Source of the DNA: a virus
Lineage: Duplodnaviria > Caudoviricetes
Length of the DNA stretch: 61,734 nucleotides
Direction: 5' to 3' (one strand)
IMG/VR virus record: IMGVR_UViG_3300022074_000037
Span: 1 to 61,734 of that record
Shown here: positions 6,079-53,820 of the stretch, in pieces
Numbering within the stretch: position 1 is the stretch's first letter
Layout of the letters: each line of letters starts with the position of its first letter
Translations under genes and position numbers: made by a program
Notes under the pieces: model-generated
What the model saw: the letters and a program-made list of their open reading frames with translations, nothing else
The model's database searches: none
What the model was told of the DNA's origin: nothing

Positions 6079-6627
6079 ATGACTAGATACATTTTTATTT
6101 TATTTGGTGTGTTGTTTTTCGCAACGAATTCATATGCACAAACCACAAGTGTGGAAACAACTACTAATAGTAAATCTGATGTTACTACATCAGGCAAGAC
6201 AATTGTTATATCCCCACCACCATCTGCGATTTCGCCAAGTATTGGTTCTTCATCTTCAGACCTTTGTACTACAGGGGTTTCTGGTGCAGTCCAAACACAA
6301 ATTCTTGGTGTCTCTACAGGTGAAATGGTAAGGGATGAAAATTGTGAACGTCTAAAGATTTCAAAGACACTCTATGATATGGGCATGAAAGTGGCCGCAG
6401 TATCAGTCCTATGTCAAGACCGTAGAGTTTATGACGCAATGGAAATGGCAGGCACACCTTGCCCGTTCTTGGGTAAAATCGGTGAGCAGGCAACCGATGA
6501 GTGGAAAAGTAATCCAGACAGAATTCCACCTGTCGAAATAATAGAGAAAAAATCAGATGTTCAAAAAAGAAACGCTACTATCGGCGCTACTGTTGGTAGT
6601 CTTGCTTTGCTTCTCCTCTTACTCTAA
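6079..6627 (+). CDS. exported Cys-containing protein with C-terminal anchor
   Basis: Signal peptide, several Cys, hydrophobic C-terminus. Confidence 0.75.
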   Translation: MTRYIFILFGVLFFATNSYAQTTSVETTTNSKSDVTTSGKTIVISPPPSAISPSIGSSSSDLCTTGVSGAVQTQILGVSTGEMVRDENCERLKISKTLYDMGMKVAAVSVLCQDRRVYDAMEMAGTPCPFLGKIGEQATDEWKSNPDRIPPVEIIEKKSDVQKRNATIGATVGSLALLLLLL

Positions 6628-8545
6628 CGCACAAGTAACTTGTTCAACAGACGGTACTACTAATCCATTAGCAGGCAATGGCACCTGTCTAGACCCCAAC
6701 GATAATACTGTTCAACAAATTATAGACCAAGGTGATTTTGGCACAGGTAGTCATAGCACTGGAAGTTCTCATAATCAGATGTATCAGATGACGGACAGAA
6801 GAACTGGTGCAGTTTTGTCTACTGATTACATTATGCACTTCTCGTATACTGACGATACATGGATAACCAATCTGGCTATCAATCAAGCGTTAGTTGGTGC
6901 TGGGTTTGATATTGCTGGTTACATAACAGAATGGGAATGGAAAAATGAAACCACGAATACAATAAATGGTGCTTGTACAGCAACAAAAGTAAACGGTGAT
7001 TGTTTAGATGATTTAGTAATCACTGTCGATGCATTTGCTTCTGGTACTAACATTTATTCTGAAGAGTGGGATTACAGTCAAACAAAATCAAATGGATATA
7101 CGGTTGAGGAAGTATTAAGTTTTGCTCCATTAGCATTAGTGCCAGGCGTAACTATTGACCAAATTGAAGTAACTATCCGAGGCAAAGACAATGGTTATTG
7201 GCAAGGTATGCACGGCCCAAAGGTGAAGAACTTTACTGGTAGTGTAGTTCTTATGCCAGATACCTGTACACTCAATGGAGCGCTATCTGATGCCTCCTGT
7301 CCTGGCTATGCAAATGCGTTGTTTCAACAACAATGCACTTCCAATCCATTATTTGACCCATCTTGTTCAGGCTATGCGGCTGCATACTTGACACAACAGT
7401 GTTCTGCAAATCCTTTGTATGACCCTGCCTGTCCTGGCTATGCAAACGCATATTACAATCAACAATGTCAACTCAATCCACTATATGATAGTGGATGTAC
7501 AGGATACAAGACCGCATATTACAATCAACAATGTCAACTTGACCCACTATATGATAGTGGGTGTACAGGGTATAAGACTGCATACTTCAATCAACAATGT
7601 TCGCTAGACCCCCTCTATGACCCATCATGCCCCGGCTATGCGTCAGCAAACCTTGCAAAACAATGTGACTATGACCCACTATATTCGGTGGAGTGTACTG
7701 GATACCAACAAGCATATCTAGAACAACAATGTGAATTAGATTCATTATATGACGTACAATGTCCAGACTATCAAACCGCAATAGAACTTACAAAGATTGT
7801 TGACAATGGTAGGACAGATGACCCTACAATTATAAACAATGAAATAGATGTTACTACAACAACTGAAATTGAAGGTTTACCAAATGTATTGACGTTACCA
7901 GATGTACAGACAGTTGTGGTTGAAGAGATTGATGACGGTGAAGGTTTTCAAGAAGTCGAAGATAATATCAGAGGTGACCAACTTGCAATGGAAGATGACA
8001 TCGAAAAAGAAATTGAAGAACTAGAAGGTCAAACTGGTAATACTGCAATGGATGATGACATTGAGAAAGAACTTGCAGAAGTAGAGAATGAAGCAAGCTC
8101 TGGTGATGGTAACACAAACCAAGAGGACGATATTGAGAAAGAACTTGCAGAGTTAAAAGAAAATACATCTGAAGATGAAGACTTTCAAGACCCAACTAAA
8201 AAGACTGTTGTAGATAAATCATCAGAACAAAAGATTGGAAAGAAGAAAGTAGTAGAGAAGAAGTCAACTAAGAACGACAAGATAAGAATGTTGTTGGCCC
8301 AGAAGGCGATTGAGTTGACAAAGAAGATTGAACAAGAAACGAATTTGGAAAACCAAATGTTAGTACAACGTCAACTCCTTGCACTGATTTCGTATGTGCC
8401 TGGATTTGACTATGCAGAAAAGAAGAACAAGGATAATGATTTCTATCCAGACAAACCAACTGTAGACCATGCGTTTGCAAGATGGTTTTTGAATGACCCC
8501 AATTTCGACACGATGGAAAACTTACAATATCCAAACTTAAACTAG
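6557..8545 (+). CDS. large exported protein with 22-aa Cys repeats and an acidic region
   Basis: Signal peptide; 8 copies of C-x2-(N/D)PLYDxxCxGY; EDDIEKE repeats. Confidence 0.8.
   Translation: MFKKETLLSALLLVVLLCFSSYSNAQVTCSTDGTTNPLAGNGTCLDPNDNTVQQIIDQGDFGTGSHSTGSSHNQMYQMTDRRTGAVLSTDYIMHFSYTDDTWITNLAINQALVGAGFDIAGYITEWEWKNETTNTINGACTATKVNGDCLDDLVITVDAFASGTNIYSEEWDYSQTKSNGYTVEEVLSFAPLALVPGVTIDQIEVTIRGKDNGYWQGMHGPKVKNFTGSVVLMPDTCTLNGALSDASCPGYANALFQQQCTSNPLFDPSCSGYAAAYLTQQCSANPLYDPACPGYANAYYNQQCQLNPLYDSGCTGYKTAYYNQQCQLDPLYDSGCTGYKTAYFNQQCSLDPLYDPSCPGYASANLAKQCDYDPLYSVECTGYQQAYLEQQCELDSLYDVQCPDYQTAIELTKIVDNGRTDDPTIINNEIDVTTTTEIEGLPNVLTLPDVQTVVVEEIDDGEGFQEVEDNIRGDQLAMEDDIEKEIEELEGQTGNTAMDDDIEKELAEVENEASSGDGNTNQEDDIEKELAELKENTSEDEDFQDPTKKTVVDKSSEQKIGKKKVVEKKSTKNDKIRMLLAQKAIELTKKIEQETNLENQMLVQRQLLALISYVPGFDYAEKKNKDNDFYPDKPTVDHAFARWFLNDPNFDTMENLQYPNLN
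7265..7780 (+). repeat. intragenic 66-bp tandem repeat (about 8 copies)
   Basis: 7451-7516 and 7517-7582 are near-identical at DNA level; 22-aa period. Confidence 0.9.
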
Positions 8546-15994: not shown

Positions 15995-16468
15995 ATGTCC
16001 GATAAACTTTGGAGAAAGGTTAAGAAAATGGAATTAGGTAATCCGATTATCACAGCACTTGTAGGCCTTGTAGTATTTTATATCGGTTTGAAAATGTTTT
16101 CTGGTGGTATGAAATCTATGGGTAATATGGAACACCTTGCATTCTTCTTAGGTAATCCAATTTATATGTTCTTTGGTGGTATTGTTATGACATTGCTCTG
16201 GCAATCATCATCACTCTCAACAACGGCAATCATTGCATTAGTTGCTTCTGGTGCGTTACCACTTCCTGCCGCAATAGGGGCAGTTCTTGGTGCAAACATA
16301 GGAACGACAGGTACAATCTGGTTGGCAGGACTTCTGGTTTCAGATGGAATGCCTAAGGGTGATACCTTGAGGGTTGCACTTGCACATTCTGGTGCAAATC
16401 TATTCATGTCTATCATGTTACTACCTTGGGTACATCATATCGCAAGGTTCTTAGGTAAGGTAGGGTGA
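15995..16468 (+). CDS. Na+/phosphate cotransporter-family protein (single repeat)
   Basis: QSSS motif, GANIGTT, AH..ANL; hydrophobic. Confidence 0.85.
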   Translation: MSDKLWRKVKKMELGNPIITALVGLVVFYIGLKMFSGGMKSMGNMEHLAFFLGNPIYMFFGGIVMTLLWQSSSLSTTAIIALVASGALPLPAAIGAVLGANIGTTGTIWLAGLLVSDGMPKGDTLRVALAHSGANLFMSIMLLPWVHHIARFLGKVG

Positions 16469-16602
16469 TTCGGCACGATTCGGCATTTTACACTAATCTA
16501 AACTAAAAACTCTAAAAAATCTCTCACGAAAGCCCTTGATTTACAAGGGCTTTTTTTTATTTTAAAAAAGGCCTTGACTTTGTTCTCAAAACATCGTATA
16601 GT
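16466..16602 (+). promoter_or_regulatory. modular early promoter 1
   Basis: TGATTCG 16466, CGATTCG 16476; AAGCCCTTGATTTACAAGGGC-T8; TTGACT(16574)-17-TATAGT with TGTTCTCAAAACA. Confidence 0.85.
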
Positions 16603-16631: not shown

Positions 16632-16874
16632 ATGACAAATCAAGAAACAATTTTTATCGGTGCCGACAACGGTGGTATTAAAGTTTACAAAGGTGTTGGT
16701 AACAATGTTGGGTTTGCAAAGACCGCTAAGATGCTTGCATATATCCTTGACACCCACAAGATTTACGGTGAAGTGATGTTCACAAGCAGCATGGACTTTG
16801 CTGATGAGTATGGGTTTGACCACTATAACGGTGCGAAAGACCTTTGGAATGAAGCTGTTGAGATGAGGGTTTAA
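16632..16874 (+). CDS. early hypothetical protein
   Basis: GAGAGAAAGGA leader. Confidence 0.75.
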   Translation: MTNQETIFIGADNGGIKVYKGVGNNVGFAKTAKMLAYILDTHKIYGEVMFTSSMDFADEYGFDHYNGAKDLWNEAVEMRV

Positions 16875-21327: not shown

Positions 21328-21786
21328 ATGGCAGTGAATACATATACACCTTTACTACATGAGGTGCTGAAGAAAGTTCATAATGCAAAGACTAAAGAGA
21401 AGAAGATTGAAATTCTTAGAGAGAATAATAGTGATGCATTGCGAATGATTATTAAGGGTTCATTTGACCCTAAAATCGAATGGATTTTACCACCTGGCGA
21501 AGTTCCTTTCAACAGAAACGAAGCCCCAGATGGAACTGAACACACTTTACTCTTCCAAGAGTCAAAGAAGTTATACAGGTTCATCAAAGGTGGTGACAAC
21601 CAAACACCGCAATGGAAGAAGGAACAGATGTTCGTTCAGATGTTGGAAGGTCTGTCTCAAGGCGAGGCAGAGGTGGTAGTGGCCGCAAAGGATAAAAAAT
21701 TACATCAAGTCTATAAAGGACTTTCGGCGGTTGTTGTCAAAGAAGCGTTTGGGTGGAATGACGAATTTGTTGACCCAAATAAGTAA
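21328..21786 (+). CDS. conserved T4-like hypothetical protein
   Basis: FDPKIEW.LP.G.VP...EQMFVQMLEGL; follows rnh. Confidence 0.75.
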   Translation: MAVNTYTPLLHEVLKKVHNAKTKEKKIEILRENNSDALRMIIKGSFDPKIEWILPPGEVPFNRNEAPDGTEHTLLFQESKKLYRFIKGGDNQTPQWKKEQMFVQMLEGLSQGEAEVVVAAKDKKLHQVYKGLSAVVVKEAFGWNDEFVDPNK

Positions 21787-21792
21787 AACTTC

Positions 21793-21821
21793 TTGACATT
21801 TTGGTACTGATGAGGTACTAT
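21793..21821 (+). promoter_or_regulatory. sigma70-type promoter of the candidate sRNA
   Basis: TTGACA-17-TACTAT. Confidence 0.75.
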
Positions 21822-21826
21822 GATTA

Positions 21827-21949
21827 AAGACTTGGTAATGAGGTTGTTATGAAACGGAACACGACTCCTCTCTCTCTCACTTTCAGTGTTCCAGTGATTC
21901 GGCGTGATTTGCTAAAGTCTTGGGGGGAAACGAACTTTCCCCCCTTTTT
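21827..21949 (+). ncRNA. candidate small RNA with CU-rich anti-Shine-Dalgarno loop
   Basis: Own promoter and terminator; AAGACTT/AAGTCTT and GGAACAC/GTGTTCC stems close loop GACTCCTCTCTCTCTCACTTTCA. Confidence 0.7.
21923..21949 (+). terminator. intrinsic terminator
   Basis: GGGGGAAA/TTTCCCCC stem plus U-run. Confidence 0.85.
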
Positions 21950-21955
21950 CTTTTC

Positions 21956-22026
21956 TAAACCCTTGATTTTCAAGGATTATTTAGTTCGTTTTTTCCCTTG
22001 ACATTGTTATCAAAACATAGTAGCAT
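21956..22026 (+). promoter_or_regulatory. modular early promoter 3
   Basis: TAAACCCTTGATT (IHF consensus); TTGACA(21998)-17-TAGCAT with TGTTATCAAAACA; TGATTCG at 21895. Confidence 0.85.
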
Positions 22027-22056
22027 ATACTTGTAATGATGAGAAAGAGAGTAAAT

Positions 22057-22485
22057 ATGAATTACGTTGTTGTAGAGGGTGGGAACAAAGTCCAGAGAGA
22101 CATTGCCGAGAAGGTAGTGAATTTCATGATTGGTCAGTTGTTACCACGACATCGTACACTGGATATTACAGTTCAGTTAAACAAGATGAATGATGACGCA
22201 ATCGGTTACTGTCAGATGGAAGATACCAATCGTGAGTTCATCATCGAAGTTGACAAGACCATTGGTATCAAAGAGTTGGTGACCACAATTTGTCATGAGA
22301 TGATTCATGTCAAACAGTATGTCCGAAATGAAATGAACGATGATTTGGTCGAGAATGGCCAGGCCGTTTGGAGAGGTCGTAAGGTCAACCCAAACACAAA
22401 GTATTACGACTTACCTTGGGAGAAGGAAGCGTATCGTCTACAAGACAAATTTGCAAACCTAGTATGGAAAGAGGAGATTATATAA
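22057..22485 (+). CDS. zincin-like metallopeptidase
   Basis: HEMIHVKQ (HExxH) and PWEKEA. Confidence 0.75.
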   Translation: MNYVVVEGGNKVQRDIAEKVVNFMIGQLLPRHRTLDITVQLNKMNDDAIGYCQMEDTNREFIIEVDKTIGIKELVTTICHEMIHVKQYVRNEMNDDLVENGQAVWRGRKVNPNTKYYDLPWEKEAYRLQDKFANLVWKEEII

Positions 22486-27357: not shown

Positions 27358-27782
27358 TGTATCAATACAAATGTAAATTGGTGAAAGTAGTTGATGGTGA
27401 CACAATTGATGTTGACATTGACTTGGGCTTTGGAGTGTGGTTACGCAAACAACGGATTCGTATGTATGGTATCGACACACCAGAATCTAGAACCAGAGAC
27501 TTAGAAGAAAAGAAATATGGATTGGCCGCAAAGGCGTTCCTAGAGAAATGGACAAACGCTGGTCATCTTGTTCTTAGAACATTTAAGGATGGTAAAGGTA
27601 AGTATGGTCGTATCCTTGGACAGATTTGGTACGAGGACACTCACAATATTAATCAACTTCTAATCGACAATCATCATGCGGTTGCATATCATGGTCAATC
27701 AAAACAAGAGATTGCTGAGGAGCATATCAAAAACAGAGAGTTCGTTAATCTTAACGATGCTGTAAAATCCCTTGACAATTGA
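27357..27782 (+). CDS. thermonuclease (SNase-like)
   Basis: VVDGDTID, R.YGIDTPE, GKYGRIL. Confidence 0.88.
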   Translation: MYQYKCKLVKVVDGDTIDVDIDLGFGVWLRKQRIRMYGIDTPESRTRDLEEKKYGLAAKAFLEKWTNAGHLVLRTFKDGKGKYGRILGQIWYEDTHNINQLLIDNHHAVAYHGQSKQEIAEEHIKNREFVNLNDAVKSLDN

Positions 27783-27807
27783 ATCAGTCTTTGGTATAAA
27801 TATAATA

Positions 27808-28093
27808 CAGTTTGATGATACAAATCAAAGGACGGACAGGACATGGGGGCAGTACCCATCGCCTCCACCATAACTACTCTTAGATGAGATAGTGAATCAC
27901 TGCATGAGAGTAGTTATGATGGGGGCGAACTAGGTTCGACTGACGTAGATAGAGGCGAGTAGAATTGTCGGATGACTGCGTAATAGGTCAAAACTCGTAA
28001 ATGCAAACGATAACAATGCATATGTAGATTACGCTCTCGCAGCCTAATCGTACTGAGTTTCGGTGGTGTACTTGGAAACAGAAACACCACCAC
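27808..28093 (+). ncRNA. ssrA: permuted two-piece tmRNA (alphaproteobacterial type), tag ANDNNAYVDYALAA
   Basis: Acceptor piece ends CGCCTCCACCA at 27870; hairpin intervening segment; coding piece starts GGGGGCG at 27921 (G3.U70); tag frame 28003-28047; promoter TTGACA 27772 and TATAAATA 27795; outer ends approximate. Confidence 0.92.
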
Positions 28094-28110
28094 TTAATTT
28101 TGGAGATAGT

Positions 28111-50301: not shown

Positions 50302-50490
50302 TTGATAATCTATAAATGCAATAAAGATACGGAGATATATTTGTTAGATAAGTTTCATTTCAAAGTAATCTACCCAGACGGAGAGGTAGAGTATTGGTTT
50401 AACACAGTCGCAGAGACAATCGCAGAGTTGTCCAGACTACAGAAGATACATGACAACAAGGTTCAAATCAAAGGGCCACTAACACTATAG
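50302..50490 (+). CDS. hypothetical protein
   Basis: TTG start; downstream of TTGACA at 50235. Confidence 0.45.
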   Translation: MIIYKCNKDTEIYLLDKFHFKVIYPDGEVEYWFNTVAETIAELSRLQKIHDNKVQIKGPLTL

Positions 50491-50566
50491 GGCCTGTAGT
50501 TCAACTGGATAGAATGTCAGTCTACGAAACTGAAGGTTCATGGTTCGAGTCCATGCAGGCCCACCA
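50490..50566 (+). tRNA. tRNA-Arg (ACG)
   Basis: GGGCCTG/CAGGCCC acceptor, TCAGT-CTACGAA-ACTGA, GGTTCGA, CCA. Confidence 0.93.
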
Positions 50567-51321: not shown

Positions 51322-51407
51322 GCCCCTGTGGTGGAATAGGTAGACACACAAGACTTAAAATCTTGAGACTTTTAGTCGTGCGAGTTCGAGTCTCGCTGGG
51401 GGCACCA
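51322..51407 (+). tRNA. tRNA-Leu (TAA)
   Basis: CAAGA-CTTAAAA-TCTTG, long variable arm, GTTCGA, CCA. Confidence 0.93.
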
Positions 51408-53742: not shown

Positions 53743-53820
53743 GCATCCTTAGCTCAGCTGGATTAGAGCAACGGTCTTCTAAACCGTAGGTCACAGGTTC
53801 GAGTCCTGTAGGATGCGCCA
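53743..53820 (+). tRNA. tRNA-Arg (TCT)
   Basis: GCATCCT/AGGATGC, ACGGT-CTTCTAA-ACCGT, GGTTCGA, CCA. Confidence 0.95.

Follow-up and report, generated by a model that had tools for sequence, protein, structure and literature searches.

We conclude with high confidence that the intergenic region downstream of a DUF6433 gene in an uncultured marine T4-type myophage encodes a functional non-coding RNA; this gene defines a new, conserved family of phage small RNAs (sRNAs). The gene lies at positions 21793–21950 of the window, the whole 61,734-nt stretch of DNA analyzed here, which is 61.7 kb of a viral contig with an estimated completeness of 44%. It is a self-contained unit of promoter, hairpin and terminator, each of which is found where the preliminary description of this DNA had placed it.

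According to the amino acid identity of a 939-residue structural protein, the nearest named relatives of the source phage are Methylophilales phage Melnitz (43%), Pelagibacter phage Mosig (36%) and HTVC008M (33%). The DUF6433 gene beside the sRNA unit is 70% identical to that of Melnitz at the nucleotide level. The sRNA-bearing phages, all uncultured marine myophages, form a subclade that is related to Melnitz and the pelagimyophages. The hosts of this pelagimyophage/Melnitz group include some of the most abundant marine bacteria.

Organization and predicted fold

All elements of the RNA gene lie on the + strand. Its promoter (21793–21821) consists of TTGACA (21793–21798), a 17-nt spacer and TACTAT (21816–21821), and scores 10/12 in a promoter scan. 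It is of the early, sigma-70 type, though its spacer contains GGTACT...GGTACT and is unlike the spacer of the class-A early promoters discussed below. The sRNA body (21826–21921) comprises about 96–97 nt, with a 5′ start placed from the position of the −10 box, and forms a single long irregular hairpin. The closing helix P1 pairs 21827–21836, which includes AAGACTT (21827–21833), with 21912–21921, which includes AAGTCTT (21915–21921). A start-region-like segment follows at 21840–21851, in which GAGG, 5 nt and AUG succeed one another and UUGUUAUG occupies 21844–21851. The inner helix P2, defined by both fold and covariation, pairs GGAACAC (21856–21862) with GTGTTCC (21886–21892) and closes an apical loop of 23 nt (21863–21885, GACTCCTCTCTCTCTCACTTTCA). 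This loop contains the tract CUCCUC(UC)nAC, the proposed seed that would mimic an anti-Shine-Dalgarno sequence. The 3′ arm carries a tandem motif, GATTCG-N4-GATTTG (21896–21911), which is present in all versions of the RNA. The intrinsic terminator (21922–21950) has a 9-pair stem and a 5-nt loop, GGGGGGAAA-CGAAC-TTTCCCCCC at 21922–21944, followed by a U run.

The minimum-free-energy fold of the unit is one long hairpin of −40.4 kcal/mol (z = −2.63), and 2 of 200 shuffled sequences fold equally well. The predicted structure reproduces the outer stem, inner stem and loop that had been described from inspection of the sequence. The loop tract is largely exposed, with a mean unpaired probability of 0.51–1.00 across 16 versions and 1.00 in the source phage.

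Assembled RNA libraries cover the locus. Twelve of 22 runs are recorded as RNA, with assembled contigs only, and X1, X2, X5 and X6, which come from three studies, were examined. A 183-nt contig from X1 covers 21825–22007 with zero differences and leaves the stretch 21777–21824 uncovered, while contigs from X2 and X5 cover 21771–21998 and 21532–21904, respectively. At depths of 2–8, these contigs extend beyond the unit, over the promoter in X2 and over the terminator in X1, and the flanking genes are covered alike; DNA carry-over is possible.

Conservation and covariation

In an alignment of 17 distinct intergenic sequences, both promoter hexamers are invariant and their spacing is free of indels; variation between versions is unrestricted in the promoter spacer, the terminator loop and the downstream spacer. 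Mean pairwise identity is 86% for the RNA body, compared with 65% for the four-fold degenerate sites in the gene next to it and 67% in the RNA's own promoter spacer. Among the 14 codon-alignable versions, which give 91 pairs, the RNA body is more conserved than the four-fold sites in 82 pairs.

The predicted helices are maintained across relatives. Fitted to the model, the alignment has 95.7% of its cells paired, and five pairs are changed on both sides; the covariation score is reached by none of 500 shuffles. These changes on both sides are found in P2 and in the terminator, the two places where covariation supports the pairing. P2 (helix 3) has 97.3% of its cells paired and two of its 7 pairs changed on both sides, with A-U replaced by U-A in 5 versions and a closing pair that occurs as G-C, G-U, A-U and U-A. 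In the terminator (helix 4), three of 8 pairs are changed on both sides. P1 (helix 1) is paired in 99.4% of cells, but 8 of its 10 pairs never vary, and because of this invariance it says nothing for or against the fold by way of covariation.

The loop tract CUCCUC(UC)nAC is invariant except for the number of CU repeats, so that the conservation on which the preliminary description depended is seen in the tract itself, with only repeat number changing. The most invariant parts of the RNA nevertheless lie outside the loop, and the GAGG-N5-AUG segment at 21840–21851 is invariant or nearly so in the alignment.

Distribution among relatives

The 157-residue DUF6433 protein was used as the query to collect related loci; of 512 relatives found, 80 viral-contig loci were taken. 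Twenty-six of the 80 show conservation of the intergenic region downstream of the DUF6433 gene. A search with a 21-nt motif taken from the 5′ portion of the RNA gave 33 viral contigs, of which 7 were new. The covariance model R1, built from 17 versions, recovers the source-phage RNA at 21826–21949 (118.9 bits, E = 2.3e-19) and matches 34 of 89 sources with scores of 119–145 bits. These matches represent 16 distinct versions, all from uncultured marine myophage contigs. The position of the sRNA is constant in the versions aligned, with the DUF6433 gene before it and the same cassette after it; at DUF6433 loci without an R1 match, the next gene comes directly after the DUF6433 gene.

R1 finds no match in L001 and L028–L081, nor in the complete genomes of Melnitz-1 and Mosig, and its only match in HTVC008M is at chance level (16 bits, E = 0.85). 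In metagenomes, a looser stem-plus-loop pattern reveals at least 3 further members among the 80 matches listed. The 18-nt loop motif is found in 29 viral-contig stretches, of which 26 lie in contigs of the sRNA family and the others, in L113, L114 and L115, are unrelated. We note that L113 and L115, both non-members, contain a hairpin just 5′ of a gene start, formed by pairing of GAGAGAGAGG with CCTCTCTCTC. Cellular carriers were sought with the exact 21-nt 5′ motif over 185,579 species genomes, and no member was found; the one cellular occurrence of the motif, within an ORF of a bacterial MAG, does not belong to the family.

No Rfam family matches the unit. A search of 21793–21950 against Rfam 15 gives no match at gathering level, the best overlap being sraA at 17 bits (gathering 56, E = 5), and all of the overlaps are at chance level. 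Supplementary files aside, the literature searched contains no description of this sRNA and no small regulatory RNA from the pelagimyophage/Melnitz group.

Early-promoter cassettes and complementarity to the loop

The window contains seven class-A early promoters (16574, 17330, 21998, 42403, 43618, 51533 and 52500), each with TTGAC[A/T], a spacer palindrome TGTT...AACA and TAnnnT. The palindrome could be an operator or the stem-loop of a PeSL-type cassette. Behind each promoter is a leader of 25–35 nt with a (GA)n tract, and the leaders begin with a conserved ATATGTATAG-like sequence. The GA-rich leaders noted earlier at 16632, 17383, 22057, 42465, 43674, 51593 and 52558 were all located, as were those at the late-type genes 32675 and 35858. 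The class-A leaders and promoters are copies of repeated cassettes (repeat families D2, D3 and D8). As copies of one repeated cassette, the seven leaders are not independent observations.

These cassettes have the attributes of PeSL elements: a repeated sigma-70-like promoter, a stem-loop, a Shine-Dalgarno sequence and a start codon, placed before ORFans. In a Pfam scan of 10 proteins that included the products of the seven class-A cassette genes, none reached the gathering score. One such cassette (21957–22058, + strand) adjoins the RNA gene, outside the RNA, and is both its neighbor and a candidate target; it comprises the hairpin AAACCCTTGATTTTCAAGG, a class-A promoter at 21998–22026, the GA leader GAGAAAGAGAG at 22041–22051 and a start codon at 22057. 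The gene at 22057–22485, always found downstream of the RNA, encodes a 142-residue protein with an HExxH motif and a weak SprT-like match (21.2 bits, below the Pfam cut-off). A terminator hairpin, AAGCCCTTGATTTACAAGGGC, with a T run is repeated at 16530, 21957, 42363 and 49409, where it precedes early promoters (repeat family D4).

The loop was compared with 111 start regions, called with a codon-usage model. Ranked by duplex energy with the loop, the class-A leaders occupy positions 2, 6, 9, 13, 15, 18 and 26 of 111 (Mann-Whitney p = 1.2e-4); when target accessibility is included, they rank 3, 6, 8, 11, 20, 21 and 34 of 111 (p = 2.3e-4). Their mean duplex energy is −16.4 kcal/mol, versus −10.8 ± 1.6 kcal/mol for 150 shuffled loops, none of which reaches so low a value. 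The other 104 start regions show no shift (−10.0 versus −10.1 kcal/mol with shuffled loops). A plain CCUCCU probe fails to distinguish class-A leaders from other start regions, which places the match in the extended GA repeat rather than in the core Shine-Dalgarno sequence. The complementarity between loop and leaders is thus sequence-specific and real. The claim that the loop is antisense to the leaders of early genes therefore stands as an enrichment beyond shuffled loops, but not as an exclusive relationship: with accessibility included, ranks 1, 2 and 4 are taken by the non-early genes 32675, 19652 and 35858, the last of which sits behind a TATAAATA late-type promoter. Since the loop never varies, covariation between loop and target cannot exist.

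Two other approaches to target prediction were set aside. RNAcofold, applied to the full-length RNA together with every start region, ranks the class-A leaders 18–89 (p = 0.11), and it was discarded because the loop–leader contact is a pseudoknot in that setting, forcing the hairpin open. A duplex scan of the whole window was noisy, with many matches in coding regions, and was replaced by the start-region tests. Apart from the GATTCG family, exact complementary words of 9–12 nt that link the RNA to the window are about as numerous as chance alone would give.

Melnitz has the same promoter class with GA leaders, and their energies against this loop are similar. In G002, a more distant relative, the GA leaders are weaker and the sRNA is absent. 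Because the Melnitz cassettes occur without the RNA, the leaders did not evolve to match it; rather, the leader design is the older of the two, and the RNA, specific to its clade, was added to it later.

Proposed mode of action

The reading that we prefer, which we regard as plausible if not quite probable, is that the sRNA loop pairs with purine-rich ribosome-binding sites and represses translation, with the PeSL-type early leaders as the best candidates within the phage. An RNA of about 100–125 nt would be made from its own promoter and ended by the intrinsic terminator. Its apical loop would display the CU-repeat tract in the manner of the anti-Shine-Dalgarno end of 16S rRNA, and would pair in trans with (GA)n ribosome-binding regions. 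Such pairing would block loading of the 30S subunit and thereby repress translation. The best-matched phage targets would be the short leaders of the PeSL-type early cassettes, most of which head ORFans; genes 32675, 19652 and 35858 are further matched candidates, and host mRNAs may be targets as well. Discrete transcription, pairing in vivo, repression and timing are all steps that we infer. An anti-Shine-Dalgarno mechanism appears likely, and specificity for early genes is only partly supported.

The preliminary description had gone further and cast the RNA as a trans-acting switch of early-gene translation. What survives of this proposal is a conserved RNA, an exposed anti-Shine-Dalgarno-like loop and complementarity to the leaders; what weighs against it is that non-early genes rank at the top, that Melnitz has the leaders without the RNA, and that RegA is present in relatives. 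A simple early-to-late timer is also awkward, because the promoter of the RNA is itself of the early type.

RegA deserves consideration in its own right. In T4, RegB and RegA act on the ribosome-binding regions of early messages, as proposed here for the sRNA, though they are proteins and the phage factor is an RNA (available text of PMC3014915). RegA matches of 146–155 bits are present in 4 of 5 related records (Melnitz, Mosig, HTVC008M and G002), and for this reason RegA is likely encoded in the missing part of the source genome. To judge from these matches, a protein that shuts off early-gene translation probably exists already in this phage group, and its presence in four related records suggests that the sRNA is an addition to RegA, not a replacement. 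A RegA/RegB family search of the 44%-complete window gave no match, and the controls of that search gave none either. No Hfq was found in the same window. Likewise, no TROVE (Ro60) protein is detected there by a search that matched 2 control genomes; with no Rfam match either, the possibility of a Y RNA partnered with Ro60 was rejected for this 44%-complete fragment.

The tandem GATTCG motif is a second element shared with the rest of the genome. The pattern GTGATTCGGC-N2-5-GATTCG occurs 4 times in the window, against 0.21 expected, at 16467 (+), 21896 (+, inside the sRNA), 49336 (−) and 51429 (−). All four stand about 100–130 nt upstream of an early promoter, whichever strand they are on. A relative with the RNA, G001 (L128), shows the pattern at two loci, including one at about 20443, and this genome has an 18-nt stretch identical to the GATTCG motif in other versions of the sRNA; neither Melnitz nor G002 has a copy. 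Among the 26 RNA-bearing loci the tandem pattern occurs only within the RNA, and the 54 loci without the RNA contain one site. The motif could be a protein site or a docking site for the RNA.

A model based on the loop only does not account for the start-region-like segment and the tandem GATTCG motif. Both can be drawn into a more ambitious scheme, in which the RNA would be a global riboregulator of the phage, mimicking the anti-Shine-Dalgarno end of 16S rRNA and shutting off the phage's own PeSL early ORFans, and perhaps wired to RegA through the start-like segment and to other intergenic regions through GAUUCG. We regard this fuller scheme as doubtful.

Alternative explanations

It seems unlikely that the RNA serves host take-over instead, by targeting host mRNAs whose ribosome-binding sites are purine-rich, and that its match to phage leaders is a side effect of their Shine-Dalgarno-like character. 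On this account, a loop resembling the anti-Shine-Dalgarno sequence would pair with any extended Shine-Dalgarno sequence, yet the advantage of the actual loop over shuffled loops is limited to the (GA)n class-A leaders. The history of the locus fits a host-directed role: the presence of GA leaders in Melnitz, which lacks the RNA, shows that they came first, and the gain of the RNA in a variable region was recent and clade-specific, as expected of an accessory function directed at the host. Such an RNA would nonetheless affect the phage's own messages too.

We assign a low probability to a protein decoy or sponge, in which the RNA would titrate RegA, bind a pyrimidine-binding factor such as ribosomal protein S1, or mimic the 16S 3′ end for a nuclease. 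That the most invariant parts of the RNA are outside the loop is in keeping with such a role. So is the start-like segment, in which the 8-mer UUGUUAUG coincides with the core of the SELEX consensus for T4 RegA, as given in the available text of PMC3014915; the GAGG-N5-AUG segment is also almost identical to the genuine start region of gene 49883, GAGGAGTTGTTATG (repeat family D18). The likeness to RegA targets amounts, however, to one 8-mer that was noticed after the fact, in a segment that is partly paired in the predicted fold. Furthermore, RB69 RegA selects a different sequence (PMC3014915, available text), and RegA specificity need not transfer for that reason. The RegA matches in 4 of 5 related records would supply a ligand, although this 44%-complete fragment has no RegA gene, and the recurrence of tandem GATTCG in other intergenic regions is reminiscent of a protein site.

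Improbable, in our judgment, is an element acting in cis or at the level of DNA, whether an insulator, terminator, recombination site or operator array of the PeSL-type cassette system, with the RNA as a by-product. The dedicated, invariant promoter and the covarying terminator that bracket the element argue against it, as do the compensatory changes that keep the P2 helix in the RNA. In a read-through fold, moreover, the hairpin stays intact and the loop remains unpaired with the downstream leader. The location is what recommends this account: the element lies in a variable region and immediately precedes a PeSL-type cassette, coliphage PeSLs are recombination substrates according to the available text of PMC2839356, and the tandem GATTCG motifs stand about 100–130 nt upstream of early promoters on either strand.

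Finally, a small protein starting at the conserved AUG 21849 is hardly credible, even though GAGG and AUG keep a conserved 5-nt spacing and the source-phage version has a 50-residue ORF: this sole ORF ranges from 11 to 50 residues in three frames across 16 versions with no conserved peptide, indels of 1–4 nt directly follow the AUG, it has no PHROG match and is passed over by the codon-usage gene caller, and in the source phage it runs through the terminator. With its changes of frame and length between versions, the ORF bears out the earlier statement that the unit holds no convincing protein-coding sequence.

Comparison with known systems and significance

The unit has two features of a generic trans-acting base-pairing sRNA, namely its own promoter and intrinsic terminator, and a conserved unpaired seed. 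Loop motifs of the anti-Shine-Dalgarno type define two known kinds of sRNA, the cuckoo RNAs (PMC4615179) and Yfr1 (PMC2190773), as far as the available parts of these sources describe them. The cuckoo RNAs of Alphaproteobacteria, such as RSs0680 and SmelC397, expose C/U-rich, anti-Shine-Dalgarno-like hairpin loops as the phage RNA does, and occlusion of ribosome-binding sites has been proposed for them (PMC4615179, available text). The same text describes cuckoo RNAs as chromosomal, with 2–4 adjacent hairpins that each present CCUCCUCCC on variable stems. The phage sRNA, unlike these, forms one extended hairpin that presents CUCCUC(UC)nAC on stems that hardly vary; given its single hairpin, a loop without CCUCCUCCC and no Rfam match, membership in the cuckoo group was rejected.

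Yfr1 is likewise a marine RNA with an ultraconserved, unpaired, pyrimidine-rich motif, ACUCCUCACAC (PMC2190773, available text). The phage loop, ACUCCUC(UC)nAC, has the same ends as the Yfr1 motif, with a CU repeat inserted. The available text of PMC2190773 gives Yfr1 as a cyanobacterial RNA of 54–69 nt in which the motif lies between two stem-loops, not in an apical loop, and the phage clade studied here, unlike the setting of Yfr1, is not a cyanophage clade. Membership in Yfr1 was also rejected: the motif is interrupted and sits in the apical loop of an RNA of about 100–125 nt, which has no Rfam match. By this comparison, the element is likely an anti-Shine-Dalgarno sRNA of a cuckoo/Yfr1-like kind, new in being phage-borne and in being matched to the phage's own cassettes.

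PeSL cassettes were described in the coliphages RB49 and phi1 as a repeated sigma-70-like promoter, stem-loop, Shine-Dalgarno sequence and start codon, mostly preceding ORFans in variable regions (PMC2839356, available text). The target cassettes of this phage and their neighborhood fit that description, and their sequences are unrelated to the coliphage ones. In its available part, PMC2839356 does not mention a small RNA gene among the PeSL cassettes.

The family offers a concrete, testable case of RNA-level control over the gene-expression program of a phage. To our knowledge, few small regulatory RNAs are found in lytic phages. The case ties riboregulation to mobile regulatory cassettes of the PeSL type, and the alignment and covariance model provide a means of annotating the sRNA family in viromes. 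Should the fuller scheme outlined above be true, a riboregulator that mimics 16S rRNA would be the RNA counterpart of the T4 RegB/RegA shut-off, and the first such system in T4-type phages or in phages of abundant marine heterotrophs.

Other features of the window

Several further features were recorded in the window. A permuted (two-piece) tmRNA gene of the alphaproteobacterial type is present at 27768–28094 (+ strand, 123 bits), and Melnitz carries one too. The available text of the Melnitz paper reports the permuted tmRNA gene along with a glutamine riboswitch; an Rfam search of the 61.7-kb window gives no riboswitch match at gathering level. The 50-residue ORF of the source phage (21849–22001) crosses the terminator of the sRNA gene without a stop codon, a trait of a few versions. 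If this ORF were translated on terminated RNA, it would constitute a non-stop message, and the phage is equipped with a tmRNA gene. Three tRNA genes are located at 50490–50563, 51322–51404 and 53743–53817, and a tandem GATTCG site comes immediately after the tRNA gene at 51322, on the opposite strand. Lastly, a 66-nt in-frame repeat (repeat family D1) is present in 4 copies at 7296–7752, within a 662-residue ORF (6557–8545).
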